From Bdellovibrionales bacterium (GTDB lineage Bacteria > Bdellovibrionota > Bdellovibrionia > Bdellovibrionales > UBA1609): a DNA stretch of 64,000 nt. The notes beneath the pieces are model-generated. The model searched no databases. It was not told the DNA's origin and worked only from the letters and a program-made list of their open reading frames with translations. Shown one piece after another: positions 14,260-60,847 of this stretch (the stretch's first letter is position 1; each line of letters begins with the position of its first letter). Location of the stretch: contig OZ241840.1 in NCBI GenBank assembly GCA_965202645.1, positions 492,088 through 556,087 of the forward strand, read 5' to 3'. The translations under genes and the position numbers were made by a program.

Positions 14260-15011
14260 GGTTCATGACAACTTAAGCTCTGTTTGATAGAGGTTAAGTT
14301 GTTGAAATGACTGTAAAAAACAAGTATTTTCTCCGTTCAAGAATTTCTGAGCCTAAATTTAGGGAAATTGTTAGGCTCTTTTCTGCCGATCTGACAGCCC
14401 AACAAATAGCTTTTTTTTCGGGAATCAGCAGAAACAGCATCAATAAAATCTTAAAAAATATCCGTATAAGAATGGCTGAGCATTGCGAGAAAAATAGCCT
14501 GTTTTCTAAAGGTCAAATAGAAATGGATGAAAGCTATTTTGGGCCTCGAAGAATACGCGGAAAAAAAGGCCGGGGAGCTTATGGAAAAACTATCGTTTTT
14601 GGCGTTAAAAAAAGACAAGGGAAGGTTTATACCCAAATCATTAAGAATTGCTCAAAAAAGGAGGTTTTGCCTCTTATAAGAGATAAAATTGACAGAAAGA
14701 CAACCCTATTTACAGACGGATTTAAGACCTATGATAGTTTAGTGGATTTGGGTTATAAGAAACATTATAGGGTGCATCACGGGAAGAATGAATTTTCTAA
14801 AAAAGAGGGGAAGATAAAAAGCCATATTAATGGCATAGAAAATTTTTGGGGGATCGCTAAAGTGAGGCTTTATAAATTTAGAGGAATGGATAAAAGAACA
14901 TTCTATTTGCATTTAAAAGAATGTGAGTTTAGATTTAATTATAGACAAGATAATTTATATGTGTTATTATTAAAAATCATCAGAAATAGACCCCTTAAGT
15001 TGTCATGAACC
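14260..15011 (+). mobile_element. IS1595-family (IS1016-like) insertion sequence, 752 bp
   Basis: Perfect 18-bp TIRs GGTTCATGACAACTTAAG (14260-14277; reverse complement at 14994-15011). Single transposase ORF. AAATAAA is duplicated at 14253-14259 and 15012-15018. Confidence 0.9.
14307..15008 (+). CDS. IS1595-family (ISXO2-like DDE) transposase
   Basis: 233 aa. The N-terminal HTH-like region, ...EMDESYFG...GKT.VFG...TDG.K.Y....H..V.H and ...HINGIENFW...K match my recollection of IS1016-group transposases. Confidence 0.88.
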   Translation: MTVKNKYFLRSRISEPKFREIVRLFSADLTAQQIAFFSGISRNSINKILKNIRIRMAEHCEKNSLFSKGQIEMDESYFGPRRIRGKKGRGAYGKTIVFGVKKRQGKVYTQIIKNCSKKEVLPLIRDKIDRKTTLFTDGFKTYDSLVDLGYKKHYRVHHGKNEFSKKEGKIKSHINGIENFWGIAKVRLYKFRGMDKRTFYLHLKECEFRFNYRQDNLYVLLLKIIRNRPLKLS

Positions 15012-15657
15012 AAATAAAAAAATACGTACAAAATTTTTTTATGTGTCAATGTCCCGCCGGGCAAAAATGGTGTCACAAATCCGGCGGCGGCTTTGACTGT
15101 TTTGAGCGATGCAAGGATTGGGGCAAAGAATGGAACAGCTCAAGCAAAACATGCGTGGCTAGATGTTCAAGTGGTCTAGTATGGAATGGCAAACGCTGTG
15201 TCAGAAAATGCGATGGGACTGGGGAGAATGGGAAGGGACGGGATCACGACTCCAGCGCCTGCCGCTCCTGTGTGACTATTCCTGCTGAAGATGGAGTAAA
15301 TTGGATCGTCGCCGGCTCCAATCGCGGCCAGATCGCTGGAGACTGTATTCCGCAAAATACTAATGATCCTCCCCCCCCCGACCACATATAACGGTTTTCA
15401 AAATAAATGTTATTGCGGTGCGAAGATATGTCCCGATAGCCAACAGCCTTAAGATAAGCCAGCTCAGTTGAATTGTGGCCCACGGCTGGGAGTCAATTCA
15501 GCCGGCAGTTTACTCCCGGCCGTCCGCCTCTTTTTTTTGTGGCCACCGGCTTAATAACCCAGTTTGTAAAATTTTCACACTAGAGAGATTTAAGATAATT
15601 TAAGTTTTCTTTTTTTTACTGTGATATAAAATCCTCAAACAAACCATAGGAGGATTT

Positions 15658-16197
15658 ATGCAAAAAATTATTATAAGGCTTTTCTCTGCCTTAACCAAAG
15701 AGATAAAAATCGGCTTTAAGCGTTTAGCCGTGATAGGCGTTATTGGACTAATCGGCTTTTCTAATTATGGCTATGGAGCTGGAGCTGATGTCAATACTAG
15801 AGATAATAGCGGCTCGACTCCCTTAATCGCGGCCGTCATAAATGGACATTATGATGTCGCAAAGGTTTTAATTGAATACAAAGCTGATGTTAATATTCCA
15901 AATAATAAAGGCGCGACTGCTTTGCATTATGCCTCATTTTTGGGATACAGTAACATTGCAAAATTGCTGATCGACGCTGGAGCTGATGTCAATGCTAAAG
16001 ATAATGACGGATGGACTCCTCTTAAATATGCCATGAGCTTTATGGACTTTCATGCGCAAGCAGATGGAAAACTTAACAATGACAATCCTTCCCATGTCAA
16101 ATTTCTAAAAATCATATCTATAATAAAAAGCAGAATGGCGGAGAGGCCGGCGGACAAAGGCACGCCAGACGAATACCGCAACTCAAGCGACGAATGA
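15658..16197 (+). CDS. Ankyrin-repeat protein with N-terminal TM/signal segment
   Basis: Three ANK units (GADVN..D..G.TPL..A...GH.D.AK.LI). Strong RBS AGGAGG. Confidence 0.9.
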   Translation: MQKIIIRLFSALTKEIKIGFKRLAVIGVIGLIGFSNYGYGAGADVNTRDNSGSTPLIAAVINGHYDVAKVLIEYKADVNIPNNKGATALHYASFLGYSNIAKLLIDAGADVNAKDNDGWTPLKYAMSFMDFHAQADGKLNNDNPSHVKFLKIISIIKSRMAERPADKGTPDEYRNSSDE

Positions 16198-20924: not shown

Positions 20925-21120
20925 TTGACACTTAATTGGCGTGGCAAAAATAAACCCCCCGGAAATATAGGATTTTTTATGATTTTTTTTGGGTTGGAGT
21001 TAAAAAGGAGGAATTATGGCTCAAATGCTACACCCTTGCGCCAGCTGAGCAGAGGCCAAAAATATACAAAATAGTCCAAAGAGCATAAGCGAAATTGGCA
21101 AAATAGAGCGGCTGAGCTTA
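20925..21120 (+). mobile_element. IS3-family left end plus orfA remnant
   Basis: TGACACTTAATTGGCG resembles the reverse complement of the putative right end near 36285 (TTACACTGGATCGCGC). AAGGAGGAATTATGGCTCAAATG... is closed after 10 codons. Confidence 0.4.
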
Positions 21121-28398: not shown

Positions 28399-30600
28399 TC
28401 AATCGTAATCTATTTTTCTTTTTACACTTAACACATTGTCTATTTGGCTGAGGCGGGCCATCAGCTGGCTGGCTTGCCTTAAGCCTTTAACTTTTGTGTC
28501 AAAAACAATAAAAACTTTTAGGGCGTTTGTCCGATTCACTTTAAGATTTGTAATATTCAACCCAAAAAAATTAAAAGCCTCGCTAAGTTTAGATAAAGTT
28601 CCCGGCTTGTCCAGACACACTGTGCTTAAAGACATAGTGTAATCATTGTTTAAGCTCTGATCGCTCTTCCAGCTTACATCAATAAATCGATCGGAGGAGA
28701 TCTGATCCAAAGCCTTGCAAATGTTTCTGTGAATGACAATGCCCTTTTTTTTGCTCACATAAGCCTTGACATGATCGCCCGCCACAGGATAACAGCATTT
28801 TGCAAAGTGAACCATCACATGATCCGCCCCCTCTATAGCCAAAGGGGATCCGGAAAAGTCTTTTTCCGGAGGGAGAGACAGCGGATCCGCCTGATCCAAC
28901 AAATCCTCCTGCTGACGTTTAAACACATAATCCGCTATTTGCTTAAACTCAATTTTTCCAAATCCCAAATCAATAAAAAGCTCCTCTTTTTTATTTAACC
29001 CCCGGCTTTTCATAAACTCAAAAATTTGAGGATGAGACCACAGCTCTTTTTCAGAGATTTTTAAGCGATAGCATCCTTTCTCAAACAGCTTCTCCCCTAT
29101 TTCCATAGATTTTTTTCTTTCCTCCGCCTTAAAAAAGCTTTTGATTTTAGAGCGGGCTTTGGAGGTGACGCACATTTTGAGCCAGTCTTTAGACGGCTTG
29201 GGCTTTTTAGAGGTGACAATCTCCACCGTATCCCCGCTCTTCAGCTCATGGCTTAAAGGGGTCTGCCGGCCATTGACTTTAGCCCCAATAGTTTTCTCCC
29301 CCAGTTGAGTGTGAATGGCGTAGGCAAAGTCAATGGGAGTCGCGCCTTTGGGAAACTCTTTGATTTCCCCTTCCGGGGTAAAAACATAAATCTCCGATTC
29401 AAAAAGATCCATTTTTACATTTTCCAAAAACTCCTCAGAATCATCGGAATGCTGATGCCAAGCCAGCAAATCCTTCAGCCAGTTGAATTTTGAAAGGCTG
29501 TCGCCTTTGATTTGCGCTTTTTGATTTTTAAGCTTATAAATCCAGTGAGCCGCCACTCCCCTTTCCGCCATGAGGTGCATATCATGGGTGCGTATTTGAA
29601 TTTCAATTTGCCGCCCCTCCGGCCCTAAAACAGTGGTGTGAAGGCTTTGATAGTTATTCCTTTTAGGCATGGCGATAAAATCCTTAAAACGGCCGGGGAC
29701 CGGCTTCCAAAGGGCGTGGGTCAGGCCCAAAGATTCATAGCATTCATGAATTTCCTCCACGCAGATGCGAAAAGCCGCAATATCATGAATTTCCTCAAAA
29801 GGAATGTCTTGATAGATCATTTTTTGATGGATGGAGTAAAGATTTTTGTATCGCCCCTCCACTTCGCAATTCCAGACGCCATTGGCTTTCAGCTCCTTTT
29901 CCAACAGGCCGACCACCTTTTTTTGATAAGCATTTCTGTCTGTGTTAAGCTCCCTCATTTTCCTCTCCAAGCCGGCATAGCTTTCCGGCTGAGAAAATTT
30001 AAAAGATAAATCCTCCATCTCCACTTTCATTTCATTCATGCCCAAACGGGAGGCTAAGGGGGTATAAATCTCCAAAGTCTCATTGGCTATCGCTGTTTGG
30101 CGATCTTCCGGCATGTGCTGGAGGGTTCTTAAATTATGAAGCCGGTCAGCCAGTTTAACCAAAATCACACGAACATCCCGCCCCATGGCCACAATCATTT
30201 TTCTGATATTTTCGCTTTGTTTGTGATAAATGTTGCGAAATTTCATGCGGGAGATTTTTGTGACTCCATCCAGCAAAAAAGCTACAGTCGGCCCAAACTC
30301 TTTTTCTATGTCCTTAAGAGAGGCTGAAGTGTCCTCCACGACATCATGGAGAAGAGCTGTAATGACGCTCTCCTGATCCATCTCCAAATCAGCTAAAATA
30401 TCAGCGACATTCAGGGGGTGGATAATGTAAGGCTCTCCGCTTCGCCTTTTCTGGCCATCATGGGCTTTTTTGGAGTATTCATAAGCCTTAATGATGGGAT
30501 CTATTTTAATTTTAGGGCTGCGCTTTTCCAGCTTGAGCTTTAAATCCTCAAAAGTGATGGAGTGGGATTTTGCGGGGATAATTTTTTGCGGGACAGCCAC
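28399..30600 (-). CDS. rel: Bifunctional (p)ppGpp synthetase/hydrolase (RelA/SpoT homolog)
   Basis: HD hydrolase domain (HPLNVA...LHDVVEDT), synthetase domain (YKNLYSIHQKM...YQSLHTTV), and TGS and ACT regions. Confidence 0.95.
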   Translation of the reverse strand: MAVPQKIIPAKSHSITFEDLKLKLEKRSPKIKIDPIIKAYEYSKKAHDGQKRRSGEPYIIHPLNVADILADLEMDQESVITALLHDVVEDTSASLKDIEKEFGPTVAFLLDGVTKISRMKFRNIYHKQSENIRKMIVAMGRDVRVILVKLADRLHNLRTLQHMPEDRQTAIANETLEIYTPLASRLGMNEMKVEMEDLSFKFSQPESYAGLERKMRELNTDRNAYQKKVVGLLEKELKANGVWNCEVEGRYKNLYSIHQKMIYQDIPFEEIHDIAAFRICVEEIHECYESLGLTHALWKPVPGRFKDFIAMPKRNNYQSLHTTVLGPEGRQIEIQIRTHDMHLMAERGVAAHWIYKLKNQKAQIKGDSLSKFNWLKDLLAWHQHSDDSEEFLENVKMDLFESEIYVFTPEGEIKEFPKGATPIDFAYAIHTQLGEKTIGAKVNGRQTPLSHELKSGDTVEIVTSKKPKPSKDWLKMCVTSKARSKIKSFFKAEERKKSMEIGEKLFEKGCYRLKISEKELWSHPQIFEFMKSRGLNKKEELFIDLGFGKIEFKQIADYVFKRQQEDLLDQADPLSLPPEKDFSGSPLAIEGADHVMVHFAKCCYPVAGDHVKAYVSKKKGIVIHRNICKALDQISSDRFIDVSWKSDQSLNNDYTMSLSTVCLDKPGTLSKLSEAFNFFGLNITNLKVNRTNALKVFIVFDTKVKGLRQASQLMARLSQIDNVLSVKRKIDYD

Positions 30601-30794: not shown

Positions 30795-32723
30795 TCAATC
30801 CTCTTTTTTGTCATAGTCCACATTGATGGTCTCGCTGTCTCCCCCGCTTTCGCCCTCCGGTTTTTTCTCCTGTTTTTTTTCCCGGCTGGAGCTGTCCTCT
30901 TTTTTTGCGTCCTCTTTTTGAGTTTGCTTATAAACCTCCTGGCCAATTTGCTGAAAATTTTGCTTCACCTGATCTCTGATATTTTTCAGCTCATCTATGT
31001 CTATTTCATCTTTTTTCAAAGATTCTCTGGCTGTTTCAAAAGATTTTTCAGCCTCCGATTTCATGTGAGATGGGATTTTTTCCTCGTTTTCCTTTATAAT
31101 TTTTTCACACTGATAGATCATCTGATCTAATTCATTTCTTAAATTGACTATTTCTCTCCTTTTGAGGTCCTGCTCCTCATAAACCTGAGCGGATTTGATC
31201 ATTTGGCTAATCTCCTCCTCGCTCAAGCTGGGTTTGTCAATGCGAATATTTTGGCTTTTCCCTGTCGCCTGATTTTTTGCGGAAACATGAATAATCCCAT
31301 TGGAGTCAATGTCAAAAGAGACCTCAATTTTAGGAACTCCTCTGGGAGCGGGAGGAATATCCCTCAAATCAAATCGCCCCAGAGTTTTATTGTCCTTAGC
31401 CAAGCCTCTCTCCCCCTGAAGAACATGGATGGACACAACATTTTGATTGTCCTCCGCTGTGGAAAAGACCTCTGATTTTTTTGTGGGAATGGTTGTGTTT
31501 TTAGGGATTAGAGCGGTCATTACCCCGCCCAAAGTCTCTATGCCCAAAGACAAAGGCGTCACATCCAACAGCAGAACATCCTTTATCTCATTGGACAAAA
31601 TGCCCGCCTGGACAGCGGCTCCGGCCGCCACAACCTGATCGGGATTGACTGAAAGATTTAAGTCTTTGTTAAAAAAATTTTTCACCGCGGACTGGACCGC
31701 CGGAATGCGTGTGCTTCCCCCAACCATGATCACCTCATTGATTTCATCCACTGTGAGATTGGCGTCCTTTAAAACTGTCTCGCAGGGCTTTAGAGTTTTT
31801 TGAACCAGATGATCGGTCAACTGCTCAAATTTAGATCGGGTTAAAGATATGTCCAAATGCTTCGCGCCCCCCTCTCCAGCTGTAATAAAGGGAAGGTTAA
31901 TGGAGGTCTCCTGGGCGGAGCTAAGCTCCATTTTGGCCTTTTCCGCCGCCTCCCGCAGTCTTTGAAGGGCCATTTTATCCGCTCTCAAATCAATGCCCTC
32001 CATTTTTTTAAACTCATCAGCCAGCCAGCCTAAAACCGCCTCGTCAAAATCGTCTCCGCCCAGCTTTGTGTTTCCGTTTGTGGACTTCACCTCCACCAGC
32101 TGATCTGTAATGTCCAAAATAGAAATATCAAAAGTCCCTCCGCCAAAGTCATAAACAGCGACCAAGCGGTTCTCCTTTTTATCCATTCCGTAAGCCAAGG
32201 CGGCCGCTGTAGGCTCATTGATAATCCTTTTGATTTTTAAGCCCGCCACTTTGCCGGCGTCTTTTGTCGCCTGCCGTTGGGAATCATTAAAATAAGCGGG
32301 AACTGTGACCACCGCCTCTTTCACTTCCCGGCCTAAATAAGACTCCGCGTCTTTTTTGAGTTTGGATAAAATGAGAGAGGCCACTTTTTCCGGGGAGATT
32401 TCCTCACCGTGGACCAGGAAAGCGCAGTTTTCACTGCCTGATTTTTTAACTGTTTTAAAGGGGTAATTTTTAATTTCATCTTGAATTTCAGAATACAGCC
32501 GTCCAATAAATCTTTTAGAGGAAAAAATGGTGTTGCTGGGGTTGCTGACAGCCTGCCTTTTAGCAATTTGGCCAACCAGAATATCCCCTTTTTTGCCAAA
32601 GCCAACCACAGATGGCGTCGTGTAAGCCCCCTCCGCATTGGTTAAAACTTTAGGCTTGCCATTTTCAATAATGGACACCACAGAGTTTGTTGTCCCTAAA
32701 TCAATGCCGATAACCTTTCCCAT
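30795..32723 (-). CDS. dnaK: Chaperone DnaK (Hsp70)
   Basis: [17 protein letters not shown] and VGGSTRIP signatures, with a full-length Hsp70 layout. Confidence 0.97.
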
Positions 32724-33063: not shown

Positions 33064-34179
33064 TTAAAACAATTTTCTCTTTTTTTCTGAAATGGATTCC
33101 CGTTTGATGTCCGCAATTTCCCTCAAAAGCTCCTCTTCTCTTTTTTTAAGCTTTTTAGGCAGATCTACATGGATTTCACATATCAAATCGCCCCTTGTGG
33201 GATTATTTAAGCTGGGCAGGCCCCGATGAGGGAGGCGAATTTGCGCTCCGGGCTGGGTTCCGGGGGGGATTTTGACAGTCTCTTTCTCTGTCAATCCCCG
33301 CAGAGATTTTTCAGTCCCTAAAAGAGCTTGCAGATAAGAGATGGAAATAGACGCTCTGAGATCCCGCCCATCTTTTACAAACAGGGAATGGGGCTTTAAG
33401 CGAACTTCCATATAAAAATCACCGGGCGGCGCGCCGGAAGGGCCAGGCTCCCCTTCGCCCTGAAGGCGAAGTTTTGTCCCACTGCTGACGCCGGGCGGGA
33501 TTTTCACAGTCAAAGCTCTTTTTTTCCGGACAATCCCTTTGCCGTAACAATTTCCGCAAGGGCTTTCTAAAACTGAGCCTTGCCCTCCGCAGGAAGAGCA
33601 GGCTCTGGCTACAGAAAAAAAGCCTTGTTGAGAGATATGCTGCCCGCGGCCCTTGCATTGGCGGCAGGCTGTCCTTTTAGTTCCCGGCTGAGCGCCGGAG
33701 CCTTTGCAAATAGAGCAGGAGCTATGGCCGTGAAAAGAGATTTCCTTTTCCGCCCCGGTCAGAGCCTCTTTTAAGTCTAATTTCACCTCATGGTAAAGAT
33801 CAGCCCCTTTTTTGACCCTTTCAAAGTTAGAGGAGGAAAACAGCTCCTCAAATCCGCTAAAGCCTCCTCTAAAGCCTCTGCCAAAAAAGTCAGAAGCGCC
33901 AAAAATATCTTTAAAAGCCTCAAAAATATCCCCCACATCCTGAAAGCCTCCCCCTCCATTAAAGGCGCTGTGGCCGAAGCTGTCATATTTTCGCCTTTTT
34001 TTGGGATCGCCTAAAACTTGATAAGCCTCAGAGGCCTCTTTAAACTTCTCCTCCTTGCCCTTATCTCCTTTGTTTCGATCCGGATGATATTTAAAGGCCA
34101 GCTTTCTATAAGCTTTTTTAATCTCATCCTGAGAGGCGGTTTTAGAGACAGACAGAATGTCATAATAATCTTTAGGCAT
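33064..34179 (-). CDS. dnaJ: Chaperone DnaJ
   Basis: J-domain MPKDYYDIL...KYHPD, G/F region, and four CxxCxGxG zinc-finger motifs. The start is set at MPKDYY (ORF open to 34194). Confidence 0.95.
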
Positions 34180-34372
34180 AAAAATTTCCCTCAAGCTTTC
34201 TCAATCTCATCCTGAGAGGCGGTTTTAGAGACAGACAGAATGTCATAATAATCTTTAGGCATAAAAATTTCCCTCAAGCTTTCTCAATCTCATCCTGAGA
34301 GGCGGTTTTAGAGACAGACAGAATGTCATAATAATCTTTAGGCATAAAAATTTCCCTCAAGCTTTTGAGCCT
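34111..34372. repeat. 83-bp tandem triplication covering the dnaJ RBS, start codon and first 20 codons
   Basis: ATCTCATCCTGAGAGGCGG starts at 34121, 34204 and 34287. Each upstream unit encodes [23 protein letters not shown]. Confidence 0.95.
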
Positions 34373-34843
34373 TTATAGACAATAAGCGGTTAAAATAGCC
34401 AAAAATCAAGGATCAAAATATTTCTTTAGCTGTCCGGCCTTGATTTTAAAAGCATATAAGTATATGAAAGAAATAAGCCAGGCAATCATTTTGTCCATCA
34501 TTAAGGGCGGGTTTGTGGGATATAGAGCTATAAGCGGCGCTGTCACGGGCAAATTGGAGCTGATATTTAAGTCTCTGGGATTAAGCGAGCGTTAGCGCGG
34601 GCAAAGGGGATGATTTTCTAACAGTTTTATATACAGCAGAGCCATGATGCGCTATACCGGTCAAGATTGAAAAAACAAAGAGCAATGAGGCCAGTTTGAT
34701 GGCCGCTCGCTATAAGCTAAAAAAGCAAAAAATAATAAATGAGGAGCTAGCAGATCAGACATAAAATGAGCGAAAAGGCGGATGAGCGCGCTCCGCTTTC
34801 CGCGAGGCAAAAAGCTAAGCGCTTTAAAAGGAGATCAAAAAAA

Positions 34844-34934
34844 GCCCGAGTGGTGGAATTGGTAGACACACAGGACTTAAAATCCTGCGGTTTTTATTAA
34901 AGCTGTGCCAGTTCAAGTCTGGCCTCGGGCACCA
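34844..34934 (+). tRNA. tRNA-Leu (anticodon TAA), 91 nt with a long AT-rich variable arm
   Basis: Acceptor GCCCGAG/CTCGGGC, anticodon stem CAGGA/TCCTG with loop CT-TAA-AA, T-arm GCCAG-TTCAAGT-CTGGC, encoded CCA. Confidence 0.9.
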
Positions 34935-35062
34935 CGATCCAAATTTATGTTAAGCGCTAAAGGGCAAATCGCCATTTTTGTTGTCTTGATTTTTCAGGCT
35001 ATTTTTATAGTTGGATGATGTGAGGGCATAACATATCAAGGGGAGAAAACAAAGAAGGAATT

Positions 35063-35206
35063 ATGGCTCAAATACAGCGTCTTTGCGCCACGACAAAGTC
35101 GGCAGCCCTCAGCAAGATGCAAAATAGTCAAAAGAGCATAGCCAAGCCGGCCAAACAATACGGAATAGCCCCTAATGCCGCATTCAAATGGCGATCCAGC
35201 CACTGA
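35063..35206 (+). pseudogene. IS3-family orfA remnant (47 codons)
   Basis: MAQIQRLCATT...KQYGIAPNAAFKWRSSH* resembles the IS3 OrfA HTH (..ygIs.ntlykWrk), truncated. Confidence 0.55.
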
Positions 35207-36011: not shown

Positions 36012-36281
36012 TAATTTGGGGTTTATTCAATCCATGTCCCGAAAAGGGAGCTGTTATGACAACGCTTATTGTGAAAGCTGTTTTCTTTGCTCAAACGGGA
36101 ATTAGGCTGTAAAGTGTATTCTGGAATTAATGAGGCAAGAGAGAAGATTTTTGAGTGGATTGAAGGGCGGCATAACACTCAACATCTCCCTTCCGCTTTG
36201 GGCTATAAAAGCCCTTTGGAATTTGAAAAAAGGATACAACGCAATATGAAAAAGACTCATAACTTTAATCCGCTTTTTTAG
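36012..36281 (+). pseudogene. IS3-family transposase (OrfB) C-terminal remnant with an internal frameshift
   Basis: IQSMSRKGSCYDNAYCESCF in one frame, then LLKRELGCKVYSG...AREKIFEWIEG.HN......ALGYKSPLEFE in another. These are classic IS3 DDE C-terminal motifs. Confidence 0.7.
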
Positions 36282-36856: not shown

Positions 36857-37265
36857 GTGAATCTTAAATTGCGGGATCAGCGGCTGGTTTTTATTGTCGG
36901 CCCTGCGGCGGCCGGAAAAACAGACTGGGCGCTCCAATGGGCGGAGCGGGACTCAGCCTGTATTTTAAATAGCGATGTTTCTCCAAACTCCACAATGGGA
37001 AGTGAATCTTAAATTGCGGGATCAGCGGCTGATTTTTATTGTCGGCCCTGCGGCGGCCGGAAAAACAGACTGGGCGCTCCAATGGGCGGAGCGGGACTCA
37101 GCCTGTATTTTAAATAGCGATGTTTCTCCAAACTCCACAATGGGAAGTGAATCTTAAATTGCGGGATCAACGGCTGGTTTTTATTGTCGGCCCTACGGCG
37201 GCCGGAAAAACAGACTGGGCGCTCCAATGGGCGGAGCGGGACTCAGCCTGTATTTTAAATAGCGA
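36857..37265. repeat. 145-bp tandem repeat (2 full units plus a partial third) duplicating the miaA 5' end including the P-loop
   Basis: GTGAATCTTAAATTGCGGGATCA starts at 36857, 37002 and 37147. Units are near-identical. The upstream copies end in ...ILNSDVSPNSTMGSES*. Confidence 0.95.
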
Positions 37266-44077: not shown

Positions 44078-44248
44078 AATATTAAAATCCTTTTCAGTCG
44101 CTTAAAATAATTTTAAATTTATTTTTTTGTTATGCTTTTTAAGCTGTCAAGGCTTATTTGTCTGTCTTTAAAAAATTTTTTATAAAAACAAGCCTTTTTT
44201 CTTAAAATCTCAAAACATAGAAAAATGAGGCCATATATCAATCAGAAT

Positions 44249-44453
44249 GGAAATTATATATTTGACACCGCATTTGTAAAACCCTGAACGGTTTATGCAC
44301 GGCAAAAGTTAAACAAAATCAATAATTTATATTATTAACTATCTGCTTTCTTAGTTTTATGCACGCTTTTTGCGCTAAATCATTAAAACCTCCTGCAAGC
44401 CTTACATTTAAAGGCCATCACAGGTTTTATGCGACTTTAAGTATATAATTCCC
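44249..44453. mobile_element. MITE family A, copy 2 (205 bp)
   Basis: Near-identical to 237-441. Flanked by the exact 8-bp direct repeat ATCAGAAT (44241-44248 and 44454-44461). Confidence 0.88.
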
Positions 44454-44605: not shown

Positions 44606-45000
44606 TCCCTTTAAAATGCTATTAAACTCTGCCACCGGCGCCTTTGCTTATCAAAAAAAATGAGCCATAAATAAGGCAAAAAAAATAAAAGAATACGCAA
44701 AAACTTTAACCGCAAATAAAGACAAGGCTCTCATAAAAGCCTTATCGGCTTTTTCATCAAAATTTATAAGCCGTGCGCTTTTTTAGGATCTCTGCCGGCT
44801 TGGATCTGGCTTAAAATCAAATAAAGCCAGCCGTTTTTTCCAAAAAAAGAGGAGCTATCCGTTTAGACCAGGGGTCGGGAGAAGGCTTGGCATCAAGCCA
44901 GCCGTTTTTTCCAAAAAAAGAGGAGCTATCGTTTAAACCAGAGGCTGTAAATAAGCTGGCCGGCTTGTAAAAATAAGCTTTTGCCCTTAAAATAAAAAGC

Positions 45001-45492: not shown

Positions 45493-46416
45493 GTGAGAGG
45501 CTTTTTTATACCGCTTTTAGTCCTGATAACTTTACTATCTATATCCTGCGCTCCATTGCAGGTCATGGATGCCGCATATTTACAATCTGATAATAGCTTG
45601 GCCGGATCTATTATTGGCGAAGAAAGCTTTGATGAGGGTCATTATCAAACTTTTTCAAATGATTATAAAGATTTTCCCATGGAAAACAATAAATATATCA
45701 CGAAATGGATAAAGACTTTAACCGGAACTCTGCGGCAGGATATGACACGGTGGTTAGAGCGATCTCATAGATATCTTGATTTTATGGGAAATATTTTGAG
45801 ACAAGAGGGCTTGCCGGATGATTTTGTTTATATGGCTATGGCTGAATCCGGATTTAACCCTTACGCCATAAGCAAAAAGCAAGCTGTCGGCTACTGGCAA
45901 TTTATGAAGGGGACAGGCAAACATTATGGCTTAACCATCAACTCTTACATGGATGAGCGGAGGGATTTTGAATTATCCACCCGGGCGGCTATCCGATATC
46001 TCAAACATCTGTATGGCCTCTTTCAGGATTGGCGCCTAAGCATGGCCGCTTATAACTGGGGAGAGAGAAGGGTCAAAAAAGCCATTAACCGCCACAACAG
46101 CAAAAATTTTTGGCTTTTAGCTGAAAAAAGAGCTATGCCGGTTCAAACAAGGGACTTCGTTCCCAAGATAATGGCCATGAGAAGAATCGCCATGGATCCT
46201 GAAAAATACGGGTTTTTAAACCTGAAATATAAGCAGCCCTTAAATTACAGGCGCATCTCTTTGCAAAACGGCTCTTATTCTTTATCCCAAATTTCCCGTC
46301 AGTTAAACATTTCCCATGATGAATTGAAAAGGCTAAACTCAAAATTTAAAACGGATATTATTTCCGCCGACAAACAAAAAATTGATATTAGAGTTCCGGC
46401 CTATATTCAGCTTTAA
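45493..46416 (+). CDS. Membrane-bound lytic murein transglycosylase D-like (SLT domain plus LysM)
   Basis: MAMAESGFNPYAISKKQAVGYWQFM (catalytic E-S, GxWQF) and the C-terminal LysM-like YSLSQISRQLNISHDELKRLN. Confidence 0.85.
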   Translation: MRGFFIPLLVLITLLSISCAPLQVMDAAYLQSDNSLAGSIIGEESFDEGHYQTFSNDYKDFPMENNKYITKWIKTLTGTLRQDMTRWLERSHRYLDFMGNILRQEGLPDDFVYMAMAESGFNPYAISKKQAVGYWQFMKGTGKHYGLTINSYMDERRDFELSTRAAIRYLKHLYGLFQDWRLSMAAYNWGERRVKKAINRHNSKNFWLLAEKRAMPVQTRDFVPKIMAMRRIAMDPEKYGFLNLKYKQPLNYRRISLQNGSYSLSQISRQLNISHDELKRLNSKFKTDIISADKQKIDIRVPAYIQL

Positions 46417-46561
46417 AGCTTGCCCGGCAGGTTTAAAGCTCTGCCCTGAAAATCAATTTTTGGCTTATGGAATCTGAACAGGGGCAAAGGCTTTTTTTGA
46501 AACAGCCCAAACGAACGGTTTAACAGCTTTAAAGCTTGCCCGGCAGGTAAAGCCTTAGAAG

Positions 46562-48636: not shown

Positions 48637-48654
48637 AAACGCCTCCTGCTTTTT

Positions 48655-49090
48655 TATTTTTAAAAAATTCATTGAAATCTAAGTTTTTGGCTGAATGTGA
48701 CAATCCGCAGGACTGGCTTTGCTTTGCCGGCATGAGGGCGCCCATTATACTCGCATTGTTTTCCGAGTGCCCCGGCTCCGCTTTGCCGGCGTGAGAGCGC
48801 TGTATCTGAGCCATAGCCCCTCCATTATTTCTCCTCTCTATTCCCTCGCATCCCGCTAATAACATAATTTACCCGCCTTTTTGTAAGCTCATTATTTTTA
48901 AAAAATTCATTGAGACCTAAGTTTTGGCTGAATTTGAAAATCCGCGGGCTGGCTCCGCTTTGCCGGCGTGAGAGCGCTGTATCTGAGCCATAGCCCCTCC
49001 ATTATTTTTCCCCTCTATTCCCTCGCATCCCGCTAATAACATAATTTACCCGCCTTTTTGTAAGCTCATTATTTTTTCAAAAATATGGCT
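48655..49090. repeat. About 238-bp tandem duplication containing copies of the 3' end of gene 49089..50276
   Basis: TAAAAAATTCATTGA starts at 48661 and 48899. Each unit ends GCTAATAACATAATTTACCCGC, mirroring the real gene end GCTAATAACATGATTTACCCGC. The first unit has an extra inner duplication with a 62-bp period. Confidence 0.85.
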
Positions 49091-52404: not shown

Positions 52405-52728
52405 GCAGGCTCTTCAGTCTTCTCTATATTGACTCAAGCTAAACAGATAAGCCAACTGATAATACAGCTCTTCAGCTTGAGCCTTCCCCATATTGACTCA
52501 AACTACACGGCTAAGCCAACTGATAATACAACTCTTCAGCTTGAGCCTTCCCCATATTGACTCAAACTACACAGCTAAGCCAACTGATAATACAGCTTTT
52601 CAGCCTAGACCTTCCCTATATTGACTCAAACTACACAGCTAAGCCAACTGATAATACAGCTTTTCAGCCTAGACCTTCCCTATATTGACTCAAACTACAC
52701 AGCTAAGCCAACTGATAATATGAACTGA
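52405..52728. repeat. 64-bp tandem repeat x5 immediately upstream of dapD
   Basis: TATTGACTCAA starts at 52427, 52491, 52555, 52619 and 52683. Confidence 0.95.
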
Positions 52729-54750: not shown

Positions 54751-54981
54751 CTTAAGTTAGCTTTTAATGATAGGAAAAGCAGGGACAGATCAGTGAGTTT
54801 AGATTTAATCATAGACAAGATAATTTATATGTGTTATTAAAAATCATTAGAAATAGACCCCTTAAGTTGTCATGAACCTTATTAAAAATCATTAGAAATA
54901 GGCCTCTTATCTTAAGCTGTATGAGCCTTTGTTATTATTAAAAATATTGAGAAATAGGCCCCTTAAAGCGCGTCATGAACC
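54745..54981. mobile_element. Internally deleted IS1016-like derivative with three tandem copies of the right end
   Basis: 54793-54878 matches IS positions 14925-15011. A left-end-like ACTTAAG..GATAG block lies at 54755-54780. Two further decayed copies of the terminal ~50 bp end at 54927 and 54981. Confidence 0.7.
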
Positions 54982-57734: not shown

Positions 57735-58520
57735 TTAAAAAGCCCTTTCAAAAAACGATCTGTTTCCCAGATCCACTTGCTCTCCATTGTAAAACATTTG
57801 AACAGCGCCCTGATACTCATCAAAGCGAATATAAATGCTGGTTTGAGCTTTAATATGAAACCAAACAGAAGGCTTAAGAATCTTTGTAACAGTGGCCTGC
57901 CGATCCGTTTTAAAATAAATTTGAAGAGTTTCAAATGATCTGATCAACAGCTCTTTTTGAAATACAGATTCAGCGATTTGATCCAAAAGATCGGGAGAGC
58001 CGCCAGCGGACTGCCCGCCCTCCGCGCTGTTTGAGTCTTTTGGGGCTATGGCGGCCTCATCTAAGCCTCCCGGAGCGTCTCCCTCTGAGCTTTTATCAGC
58101 CCCTGCCGGCGCCTCATTTTTTGCTGTCCCAGCCTCTTTATTAAAATAAGCTGGGCCGCCCATGACTCCTATCCACAAAAAAACAATAAAAAAACCAACA
58201 AATAAGAGCGCATAAGCTGAGCGGACAGGCTGTGGGGGAGCGCTTGGCTCTCCCGATGGGCCGGCTGGCTTTTTTTGGCTTTTTTGGCTGGCCCCCTCTT
58301 GGCTTTGGCTAAAAATATCCTCCGGATTCAAGCCTAAAAAACGGGCATAAGTTTTTATAAAGCCTTTTAAAAAAACAGGAGCGACAGAAGACGCCCTCCC
58401 CTCTTCAATCTCTCTTAAAATGGAGGGCTGAATTCTTGTGATTTCAAAAATTTGCTCATAGCTCAAGCCTTTGCGCTCCCTCTCAAGCTTTAAACAGCTT
58501 CCTATTTTAGAATAATCCAT
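57735..58520 (-). CDS. rodZ: RodZ-like cytoskeleton protein (HTH, TM and C-terminal DUF4115-like domains)
   Basis: N-terminal XRE-type HTH (LERERKGLSYEQIFEITRI), a single TM segment (LLFVGFFIVFLWIGV), and a position next to pilW/ndk as in many proteobacteria. Confidence 0.75.
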   Translation of the reverse strand: MDYSKIGSCLKLERERKGLSYEQIFEITRIQPSILREIEEGRASSVAPVFLKGFIKTYARFLGLNPEDIFSQSQEGASQKSQKKPAGPSGEPSAPPQPVRSAYALLFVGFFIVFLWIGVMGGPAYFNKEAGTAKNEAPAGADKSSEGDAPGGLDEAAIAPKDSNSAEGGQSAGGSPDLLDQIAESVFQKELLIRSFETLQIYFKTDRQATVTKILKPSVWFHIKAQTSIYIRFDEYQGAVQMFYNGEQVDLGNRSFFERAF

Positions 58521-58703
58521 AATCGCCGGATAGCGGAGATAATTGTCCGAATCCTCTCCTTAAATAACTTCCTATGTTAAAGCAATCCATAATCGCCGGC
58601 TCTCCCTTCAGCCGTTTCCGCCAGCTCCGAAATCGCTTTCTCCCCTTCTCTCCGGGACAAGCTAAAAACATGAAAAAAAACATAAGCCTAAAAATCCGCG
58701 CCA

Positions 58704-59486
58704 TTAAGAAAGTTTTTTCAAAAGCTTTTTAGCTTGTTTTTCAAGATCAGTCCCCGCTTTGGCTTTTCTCAAAAAAAGCCCTAAATGATATTTGGCTTTT
58801 TGTTTGTTCCCTTTCTTGATATACAGCTGGGCCAGAGCCAACTGCTCCTCATGGGTTAATTCCCCGCAGAGAGGCTTTTCTTTCGCGCAGGCTAAAAGAG
58901 CTTTTTTTAAAAACCTCTCGGATGATTGGAGATGGCCTAAAGCCATCTCGGTCTTTCCCATATACAAATAGATAAAACAAATTTTCCCGCCGGGAAGGGA
59001 CAGCGATTCCTTCAGCCATTTTTTAGCTCTTCGATAGGAGCCCTTTTTGTAATAAGCCAAGGCTTTCTGGCCGACAAGCTTTAAATAATTTGTGTAGGTG
59101 ATGTCTTTTTCAGCTATTTTAATCTCCCTGAGGGACTTATTCAGCTGATTTTTATCAATATACACGCGGGCCAGATCCACCCGGGACTCTGTAAAATCAG
59201 GTTTTATTTTGAGTATCTTTTTAAACTCCTGCTGGGCTTTGTCACGCTGGCCCATAGATTGATAAACTATGGCTAAGGTGTGGCGAATTAAAAAATTTTT
59301 AGGATTCAGCTTAACCGCCTTCAGCAAATGGGAAAGGGCCCTGGGCTTATCACACTTGCTGATCAGCCCGACAGCGATTTTATGGTGATCGTTCGCCCTT
59401 TGAATGCTCTTTAGGCTGGTTTGGCAGGAGAAGAGCAAACATAAAAGGCTAAAAAAATAAAAACGGCGCATTGTTTTAATCCTCAC
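58704..59486 (-). CDS. TPR-repeat lipoprotein (PilW/PilF-like)
   Basis: Lipobox LLFSC. Several 34-aa TPR units. Located between ndk and rodZ. Confidence 0.7.
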   Translation of the reverse strand: MRIKTMRRFYFFSLLCLLFSCQTSLKSIQRANDHHKIAVGLISKCDKPRALSHLLKAVKLNPKNFLIRHTLAIVYQSMGQRDKAQQEFKKILKIKPDFTESRVDLARVYIDKNQLNKSLREIKIAEKDITYTNYLKLVGQKALAYYKKGSYRRAKKWLKESLSLPGGKICFIYLYMGKTEMALGHLQSSERFLKKALLACAKEKPLCGELTHEEQLALAQLYIKKGNKQKAKYHLGLFLRKAKAGTDLEKQAKKLLKKLS

Positions 59487-59907
59487 TGGCGAAAAGCTCC
59501 TCAGAGGAAAAAAACAAAGCCAACTCCCTTTTCGCGCTCACTGGAGAATCACTGCCGTGAATCGCGTTTTTTCCAATACTCTCCCCATACTCATAGCGGA
59601 TAGTGCCCGGCCGGGATTTTTTGGGATCTGTATCCCCCATAATTTCCCTGACCTTTAATACAGCCCCAGTCCCTTGAAAAACAGCCACAGCCACAGGAGC
59701 TGAGCTTATAAAATCCGTTAACTCCTGAAAAAAAGGCCTGTCTTTATGCTCTTTATAAAACTCTCGGCACTTTTCTTTGGATATTTTTAACATTTTTAAG
59801 CCAATAAGAGCGAGGCCCTCCCGCTGAATTTTTTGTATGATGGCCCCCGCCTTTTGTTTATCCATGGCATTGGGCTTTATAAGAACAAATGTCCGCTCCA
59901 TGATCAT
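59476..59907 (-). CDS. ndk: Nucleoside diphosphate kinase
   Basis: ERTFVLIKPNA...NAIHGSDS (active-site His). Confidence 0.96.
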   Translation of the reverse strand: MIMERTFVLIKPNAMDKQKAGAIIQKIQREGLALIGLKMLKISKEKCREFYKEHKDRPFFQELTDFISSAPVAVAVFQGTGAVLKVREIMGDTDPKKSRPGTIRYEYGESIGKNAIHGSDSPVSAKRELALFFSSEELFASED

Positions 59908-59974
59908 CCCTCCAAAAGCTGTTGAGCTGTAACCAAAATTAGCCCATTTGAAACATTAAAATCTTGGCCCATGA

Positions 59975-60847
59975 TCATCCCTCCAAAAGCTGTTGAGCCA
60001 CAGCCGCCAAATTCGCGGGGTTATCCACCAGCTGGCATCCGGCCCGCTTAAGGGCTGCCAGCTTGCTGTCCGCGCCTCCGCGCCCCCGGCTGATTATCGC
60101 TCCGGCGTGACCCATTCTGCGGCCGGAAGGAGCGGTTTTGCCGGCGATAAAAGCCGTCACCGGCTTTTTAAACTCCCTTTCAATATAATCCGCCGCCTCC
60201 TCTTCCGCAACCCCTCCAATCTCGCCAATTAAAATAAGCCCTTGAGTCTCCTCATCCTCATTAAAAAGCTTTAATATATCCACAAAATCTGAGCCTGGGA
60301 CAGGATCTCCGCCAATTCCCACACAAGAGCTTTGGCCTAATCCTAAACAAGTGGTTTGCCATACCGCCTCATAAGTCAAAGTGCCTGATCGGGACAAAAT
60401 TCCCAAAGAGCCTTTTTTGTGAATGTATCCCGGCATAATGCCGATTTTACAGGCGGAGGGAGTGATAACGCCCGGACAGTTGGGGCCGATAAGGCGGGAC
60501 CGGCTCCCTTTTAAAGCCTGTTTGACTTTGAGCATATCTAAAATGGGAATGCCCTCTGTGATGCAAACCACTAAATCCAGCTCAGCCTCAATAGCCTCAA
60601 TAATGGCCCCGGCGGCAAAAGGCGCGGGAACATAAATCATAGACGCGTTGGCTTTTGTCTGATCCACAGCCTGCCGGACAGTGTTAAAAATCGGCTGTCC
60701 CAGATGAGCGCCGCCTCCTTTTCCCGGTGTGACCCCGCCCACAAGCTTTGTCCCGTATTTTAAAGCCTGCTCGCTGTGAAAAGTCCCATGTTTGCCCGTA
60801 AAGCCCTGACAGATCAGGCGTGTGTTTTTGTCCGCTAAGATAGACAT
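59975..60847 (-). CDS. sucD: Succinyl-CoA synthetase alpha subunit
   Basis: [18 protein letters not shown] and GHAGAII (phosphohistidine) motifs. Confidence 0.97.

Follow-up and report, generated by a model that had tools for sequence, protein, structure and literature searches.

The start of the dnaJ gene is present in three tandem copies in a 64,000-nucleotide stretch of DNA from a Bdellovibrionales bacterium (contig OZ241840.1, positions 492,088 to 556,087), which is referred to below as the window. Only the last copy is continuous with the gene. The array is likely to be the outcome of a recent, lineage-specific and tolerated tandem amplification of the dnaJ translation-initiation region, which adds two upstream open reading frames (ORFs) to the leader of the gene. 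It is probably a neutral copying accident and not a designed control element.

Tandem Repeats Finder, run on the window, reports a period of 83 bp with 3.1 copies, 98% matches and a score of 498 at 34110–34365. Self-comparison of the window, using a repeat finder and self-BLAST, gives a 173-nt match at the dnaJ start with 98.8% identity and an offset of 83. A self-match of this kind cannot be chance. The whole array measures 256 bp. A preliminary description of this DNA had reported three units, each with leader, ATG and the first 20 codons, and two 23-codon decoy ORFs that stop 11 nt before the next ATG. This anatomy is confirmed, while the orientation has to be corrected: dnaJ lies on the minus strand, and the array consists of two extra head-to-tail 83-bp copies 5' of the gene. 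The features below were located with Tandem Repeats Finder and by reading the minus strand (repeat copies, with the self-match for copies 1 and 2), and from the ORF list with reading of the sequence (upstream ORFs) or with Pfam (dnaJ).

34283..34365, minus strand: repeat copy 1 (distal), 83 nt with GAG at the end, joined on its left to the native leader (…GGCTCA/AAAGCTT)
34200..34282, minus strand: repeat copy 2, the same 83 nt as the proximal copy except that it ends in GAG in place of AAA
34117..34199, minus strand: repeat copy 3 (proximal), with 20 nt of leader, GAGGG, the ATG at 34179 and codons 2–21, ending in the native AAA (Lys21)
34274..34345, minus strand: upstream ORF 1, 23 codons and TGA
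34191..34262, minus strand: upstream ORF 2, 23 codons and TGA, identical to upstream ORF 1
33064..34179, minus strand: intact dnaJ coding sequence, 371 amino acids, beginning at the ATG of the proximal copy

The 83-bp unit comprises 20 nt of leader with a GAGGG Shine-Dalgarno sequence, the ATG and 20 codons. The three ATGs, at 34345, 34262 and 34179, are each preceded by AAAGCTTGAGGGAAATTTTT, and codons 2–20 are identical in all copies, giving the block AAAGCTTGAGGGAAATTTTT-ATG-CCTAAAGAT…GATGAGATT three times in succession. Since 83 is not a multiple of 3, as had been pointed out before, the upstream copies shift frame and end as short ORFs. Both of their TGA codons overlap the next GAGGG, 11 nt ahead of the following ATG. 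In the case of upstream ORF 2, the TGA (34193–34191) overlaps the Shine-Dalgarno sequence of dnaJ itself (GAGGG, 34192–34188) and lies 11 nt from the dnaJ ATG. The 23-residue peptide, read from the sequence, is a fragment of the J domain and ends ahead of the HPD motif (DnaJ residues 32–34). The 371-residue DnaJ has its J, zinc-finger and C-terminal domains (Pfam DnaJ, DnaJ_CXXCXGXG and DnaJ_C), all above cut-off. Tolerance of the array is explained by the proximal copy, which runs on into an intact dnaJ and has kept its own Shine-Dalgarno sequence and ATG. The gene had previously been called essential, which is too strong a word; dnaJ is conditionally essential in model bacteria.

The nearest genomes in a collection of species representatives are chromosomes of 1.8–2.5 Mb, assembled from metagenomes (metagenome-assembled genomes, MAGs) and named "Bdellovibrionales bacterium", whose DnaJ proteins are 72%, 59% and 48% identical to that of the window. 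A protein search returned a 371-residue sequence, P0001, that is 100% identical to the DnaJ of the window and is encoded on a single 2.2-Mb contig; the next relatives are at 81% and ∼77%. We aligned the dnaJ upstream regions of five Bdellovibrionales MAGs with the window: L001 (72% DnaJ identity), L034 (81%), and L035, L036 and L037 (∼77%). A single dnaJ start region is found in all five. Four other DnaJ homologues were considered as candidates for in-frame N-terminal duplications and rejected: the longer P0021, P0022 and P0041 merely reflect upstream start calls, and P0038 is a frameshifted call on a contig of 2x coverage.

The ends of the unit coincide with short direct repeats. An 8-nt sequence, AAAAGCTT, is common to the leader (CTCAAAAGCTTGAGGG) and codons 20–24 (ATTAAAAAAGCTTAT) of dnaJ; it occurs in the leader and at codons 21–23, and these sites are 83 bp apart. 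In L035, an 11-nt sequence, CAAAAAAGCTT, is present in the leader and at codons 21–23, again exactly 83 bp apart, without any duplication. The unit length thus equals the distance between short direct repeats, both in the window and in a single-copy relative. The spacing in L035, together with the presence of AAAAGCTT at both sites in the window, indicates that the substrate for slippage or unequal exchange is ancestral, and the ancestral spacing predicts exactly the unit length that is seen. Judged from these sequences, the array qualifies as a microhomology-mediated tandem duplication in all respects except for an imperfect junction. Among the consequences suggested earlier, the strongest support goes to a very recent, unstable amplification: none of the five relatives has more than one copy, the units hardly differ from each other, and similar events abound in the window.

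Both junctions of the array read ATT-GAG-AAA-GCT-TGA, where the gene reads ATT-AAA-AAA-GCT-TAT. Codon 21 of the upstream copies therefore differs from that of the gene copy by two A>G changes (AAA>GAG, K>E). The sequences of the relatives identify Lys21 of DnaJ as the ancestral residue. The junction had been placed at a shared AAAGCTT, and this position stands; the idea of a simple hybrid of leader and coding sequence does not, since GAG is found at both junctions where the gene has AAA. The two differences may have accumulated later, as the decoy copy drifted, or may date from an error in the duplication event itself.

The only conserved promoter-like motif near dnaJ lies outside the array, upstream of the distal copy:

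34382–34410, minus strand: conserved sigma-32-like motif CTTGAT-N15-CCGCTTAT

No other site in the window matches the motif, with 0.04 matches expected; as the motif was written from this very site, its conservation in relatives is the real evidence. In relatives, CTTGAT-N15-CC(G/T)CTTAT is found ∼36–40 nt upstream of the dnaJ ATG, with a matching position in L001, L034, L035 and L037. The E. coli sigma-32 consensus is CTTGAA-N13-17-CCCCATNT, and by its resemblance to this E. coli sequence the motif may be termed sigma-32-like. Inside the array, a consensus scan detected neither a terminator nor, on the dnaJ strand, a promoter-like site. With a conserved motif outside the unit and none inside, a single promoter and a single transcript are indicated, and the proposal that the repeats multiply the promoter finds no support. 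Transcription is predicted to begin ∼7 nt beyond CCGCTTAT, ahead of the array, and the dnaJ leader would have been lengthened from ∼35 nt to ∼200 nt. On the opposite strand, each unit contains a weak sigma-70-like match, TTTAGA-17-AATAAT (9/12; 34141–34169, 34224–34252 and 34307–34335, plus strand), and this triplicated antisense site is probably a chance match.

A stop codon that overlaps the next Shine-Dalgarno sequence, 11 nt before an ATG, is a geometry compatible with termination-reinitiation. Ribosome loading or re-initiation at the array is physically plausible on the basis of this layout, as a likely side-effect that is not conserved. In ViennaRNA calculations, the probability that the dnaJ Shine-Dalgarno sequence is unpaired is 0.18 with three units, vs 0.56 for a reconstructed leader with one unit. 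A possible pairing partner is the sequence CCUCUC, from codons 15–17 of the unit before it. Translation of the upstream ORF would be predicted to open this pairing, a weak thermodynamic argument.

These properties invite the proposal that the array is an adaptive regulatory leader, in which the upstream ORFs serve as leader peptides or as standby sites for ribosome loading and tune DnaJ, possibly also DnaK, through translational coupling. In one version, translation of an upstream ORF unfolds the structure that masks the dnaJ Shine-Dalgarno sequence. Every unit does have a full Shine-Dalgarno sequence and ATG, with the stops placed as described above; the predicted loss of accessibility means that coupling could matter; and three copies persist even though instability is expected. 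However, the array is missing from all five relatives, which argues against a conserved mode of dnaJ regulation in this clade, and the upstream ORFs are likewise not conserved. They are mere copies of the gene start without an independent sequence signature. Similar duplications at the starts of miaA, a rodZ-like gene and ndk, and at the 3' ends of gmk and dnaK, point to a mutational process rather than a design specific to this locus. Known RNA regulatory families gave no matches either: no Rfam family, RNA thermometers included, matches the dnaJ leader at the gathering threshold, and at E≤1 the tRNA alone was matched in 33900–34900. We therefore regard an adaptive leader as quite improbable.

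A second array of the same kind is found at the start of miaA:

36857–37265, plus strand: miaA start array, 145-bp unit in 2.8 copies, 98% identity

The unit takes in the start of miaA, for which the TTG at 37159 is the likely codon, together with ∼36 codons that contain the P-loop. As 145 does not divide by 3, both upstream copies terminate after …ILNSDVSPNSTMGSES. Each junction contains a 26-nt filler, TGTTTCTCCAAACTCCACAATGGGAA, for which no source was found in the window and which does not significantly resemble the flanks. The filler supplies an ATG that is in the reading frame of the next copy; this ATG was rejected as the native start because the relatives begin MKPLVFIVGP, in favor of the TTG. 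In both of these young arrays, at dnaJ and at miaA, the upstream copies match one another at sites where the gene copy is different. At miaA, they have CAG and GCG where the gene has CAA and ACG, and they read GPAAAGKT where the gene and the relatives read GPTA.GKT. The threonine of the MiaA P-loop (GPTAxGKT) is ancestral according to the relatives, while the CAA/CAG difference is synonymous and gives no direction. The simplest history for both arrays is one in which the start was duplicated, the decoy drifted, and the decoy was then duplicated again, and at least the GCG/ACG difference of miaA fits it.

For dnaJ, such a history would begin with ancestral short direct repeats, (C)AAAAAAGCTT, located 83 bp apart in the leader and at codons 21–23. 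Slippage in replication, or unequal exchange between the repeats, would have doubled the 83 bp between them. The upstream copy, being non-functional, would then have gained the two A>G changes (AAA>GAG), and a later homology-driven unequal exchange between the 83-bp units would have produced a third copy with identical changes. Transcription would still begin at the sole conserved, putative heat-shock-type promoter upstream of the array, and ribosomes could initiate at any of the three identical sites. Since ribosomes end an upstream ORF on top of the next Shine-Dalgarno sequence, they may re-initiate there and open the local structure. Overall, only a modest change in DnaJ output would be expected, and it probably was not selected.

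Several observations weigh against this account. The junction is ATTGAGAAAGCTTGA, while ATTAAAAAAGCTTGA is expected for a simple hybrid. Both differences fall in the single codon that adjoins the junction, an arrangement that is ∼2% likely if changes are placed at random in the 83-nt unit; they may thus have arisen in the duplication itself, and may stem from error-prone or template-switch synthesis. The 26-nt filler at the miaA junctions is not explained by plain slippage. Given the predicted drop in accessibility, expression might be affected more than negligibly. Finally, tandem 83-bp repeats are expected to be lost fast through RecA-independent deletion between short tandem repeats, and the fact that three are still present could point to selection. 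If the array is real and arose as proposed, it is a clean natural case of a microhomology duplication that places a gene's own ribosome-binding site and start codon into its leader, and it offers a natural series of one, two and three units for the study of ribosome competition and re-initiation. The consequence for dnaJ biology itself is probably small, and the genome-wide duplication process is of somewhat more interest.

The window is unusually rich in local duplications. Tandem arrays (period ≥40 bp, ≥1.9 copies, ≥90% identity) number 4 in the 64 kb of the window, 5 in 105 kb from Bdellovibrionales relatives and 1 in ∼500 kb from dnaJ loci of other bacteria, and local direct repeats (spacing 40–300 bp, ≥30 nt, ≥85% identity) are found at 13 loci in the 64 kb of the window, 9 in the 105 kb of the relatives and 1 in 503 kb of the other bacteria, with the reservation that many of the control loci come from short-read MAGs, which may collapse repeats. 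Besides the dnaJ and miaA arrays, the following cases were recorded.

58490–58599, minus strand: duplicated start of a rodZ-like HTH_25 gene (57735..58520), 85% identity, spacing 70 bp
59898–59998, minus strand: sucD-ndk junction, the 30-nt GCTCAACAGCTTTTGGAGGGATGATCATGG present twice, 71 bp apart, 100% identity
39530–39629, plus strand: gmk stop codon and 31 nt, repeated 65 bp downstream, 100% identity
30724–30829, minus strand: last 10 codons and stop of dnaK, repeated 70 bp downstream, 94% identity
8237–8433: intergenic tandem or near-tandem repeat, period 74 bp
44821–44944: intergenic tandem or near-tandem repeat, period 71 bp
46408–46553: intergenic tandem or near-tandem repeat, period 116 bp
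48654–49082: intergenic tandem or near-tandem repeat, period 177/238 bp
52412–52720: intergenic tandem or near-tandem repeat, period 64 bp, 4.7 copies

At the rodZ-like gene, CCGGCGATTATGGATT…TAGGAAG occurs twice with 30 nt of unrelated sequence between the copies; this duplication is an older event. The sequence GCTCAACAGCTTTTGGAGGGATGATCATGG holds a Shine-Dalgarno sequence and an ATGA stop/start overlap, and its copies are located at the 3' end of sucD (59975..60847) and at the start of ndk (59476..59907). From this arrangement, it looks as though an overlapping sucD/ndk pair was split by a duplication and 41 nt of filler. The copy of the dnaK 3' end is absent in L035–L037. Its apparent filler aligns with the native downstream sequence of relatives, which indicates that at least some of the cases with two repeats around a filler are partly decayed tandem duplications.

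Nearly all of the duplications in the window are located between genes or at the start or stop of one. When a duplication extends across a gene boundary, one copy of the gene stays intact, while a duplication inside a gene destroys it if its length is not a multiple of 3; the boundary pattern is thus what purifying selection would leave. Identities that range from 85% to 100% suggest an ongoing process of birth and decay. The 64-kb window has the excess of long-period, high-identity repeats in boundary and non-coding regions that is expected of a variable-repeat background. The periods fall at 60–83 bp in 9 of 16 cases.

The last figure could also be taken as a sign of a distinct, lineage-specific duplication mechanism, other than classical slippage, that makes copies of ∼60–150 bp and often leaves junction filler. 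Candidates are the repair of closely spaced opposed nicks and fork restart at transcription-replication conflicts near promoters or terminators. Consistent with this idea, many duplications in the window have the form p-q-p, with identical repeats of 30–119 nt around 17–41 nt of unrelated sequence. The filler amounts to 26 nt at miaA, and at dnaJ 3 nt are changed; no template for the fillers was found elsewhere in the window, nor do they significantly resemble their flanks; and the events are nearly all at gene boundaries. However, ancestral microhomology of 8–11 nt at the right spacing is sufficient for dnaJ, and the 2-nt difference of its upstream copies can be ordinary decoy drift, as in miaA. 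The filler at the dnaK 3' end is native sequence by comparison with relatives, the boundary location is expected from purifying selection alone, and a 64-kb sample is small. We consider a separate mechanism unlikely.

More broadly, but still as a doubtful proposal, the lineage might have a hyperactive and possibly unusual process of local duplication, with units of ∼60–150 bp and often with junction filler, that copies the starts and ends of genes, among them housekeeping genes such as dnaJ, miaA, ndk and the rodZ-like gene. If so, it would provide a steady supply of decoy initiation regions and upstream ORFs, the raw material for leader peptides and expression variants.

The abundance of these events also bears on whether the triplication is real. 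It might be an artefact of assembly or consensus calling, or a minority variant that entered the consensus, with a single unit in the true genome. The array is known from one assembly of an uncultured organism (a single 2.2-Mb contig, the one member of its cluster), and tandem repeats are a known source of assembly errors. A second assembly of the species was not found by exact look-up of four proteins (DnaJ from its ATG, DnaJ from an upstream TTG, DnaK and P0001), and two exact-pattern scans of metagenomes, with the 83-bp unit and with the start region, returned zero contigs. On the other hand, an array of 256 bp is shorter than one long read, and the chromosome-scale contig suggests that long reads were used. 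The upstream copies share a specific 2-nt difference, which is atypical of a spurious expansion; a dozen analogous duplications of differing age, with 85–100% identity, occur in the window; and long-period arrays are also present in independently assembled relatives. The short length, the difference in the decoy copies and the many analogous events together make an artefact very unlikely, and a genuine tandem amplification is preferred.

The closest parallel that we noted is the genome of Ehrlichia ruminantium. Its 2005 genome paper reportedly describes repeats that generate truncated gene fragments beside intact genes; to our knowledge, a triplicated dnaJ translation-initiation region has not been reported from this organism. 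Tandem repeats in the non-coding regions of E. ruminantium genomes are described as actively expanding and contracting (PMC10710844). The two cases are alike in that the tandem repeats have long periods (tens to hundreds of bp) and high identity, are located in non-coding or gene-boundary regions, and occur in a small genome. They differ in that E. ruminantium belongs to the Rickettsiales and has documented copy-number variation between strains, whereas the window is Bdellovibrionales-like and represents one assembly. The window suggests that a small-genome, Bdellovibrionales-like clade shares this type of repeat-driven genome plasticity.

Duplications mediated by microhomology, through slipped strands or other RecA-independent routes, resemble the dnaJ array in that the unit equals the repeat spacing (repeats of 8 nt, or 11 nt in L035), the copies are head-to-tail and the relatives are single-copy. 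The GAG for AAA at the dnaJ junction and the 26-nt insertion at the miaA junctions are unlike the simple form of this model. Bacterial upstream ORFs and leader peptides share with the dnaJ array short ORFs in the 5' leader that have their own Shine-Dalgarno sequence and stop within a few nt of the next start. However, known leader peptides are conserved, dedicated and sensing, while the dnaJ upstream ORFs are accidental copies of the first 20 codons of their own gene, are absent in relatives and give no sign of sensing or stalling. Contingency loci also have repeats, phase-variable simple sequences, at the 5' end of a gene, with a copy number that, as in the dnaJ array, could change by slippage. 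Their units are 1–10 nt long and switch expression on and off through the frame or the promoter spacing, whereas the number of 83-nt units never alters the real dnaJ frame or start, which sets the array apart from them. A literature search on duplicated initiation regions in bacteria found nothing relevant.

The genes around the array are as follows.

30795..32723, minus strand: dnaK, directly downstream of dnaJ (Hsp70 sequence; synteny with L035–L037)
28399..30600: relA/spoT, after dnaK (Pfam matches to RelA/SpoT)
34844..34934, plus strand: tRNA-Leu(UAA), divergent neighbor upstream of dnaJ, syntenic in relatives

The synteny is kept in relatives, with the tRNA-Leu divergently upstream and the order dnaJ-dnaK-relA/spoT downstream; the tRNA is present upstream of dnaJ in L034, L035 and L037. 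A strongly conserved block, TTTCATATACTTATATGCTTTTAAAATCAAG (dnaJ strand, 34437–34470), is separated from the tRNA-Leu in the window by ∼370 nt (34480–34843, plus strand), and in L034 and L035 it is only ∼40 nt from the tRNA. The extra sequence at 34480–34843 has no Rfam match and no convincing ORF. Between dnaJ and miaA are degraded fragments of IS3-family transposases (35051–35206 and 36016–36281, plus strand), with another at 21004–21043; the Pfam matches of these fragments (HTH_Tnp_1, rve_2/rve_3) are weak and below threshold. In relatives, Mur ligase genes are found upstream of dnaJ instead, which indicates that the neighborhood in the window has been rearranged.

Dispersed repeats are present as well, in pairs ∼40–44 kb apart. 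One of 206 nt has 98% identity (236–441 vs 44248–44453), and another of ∼100 nt has 93–98% identity (14923–15021 vs 54793–54888). An ORF at 15658–16197 (plus strand) encodes an ankyrin-repeat protein with strong matches to Pfam Ank families. Such proteins are frequent in host-associated bacteria. The ankyrin protein and the small genome of 2.2 Mb fit, without proving, an association with a host.

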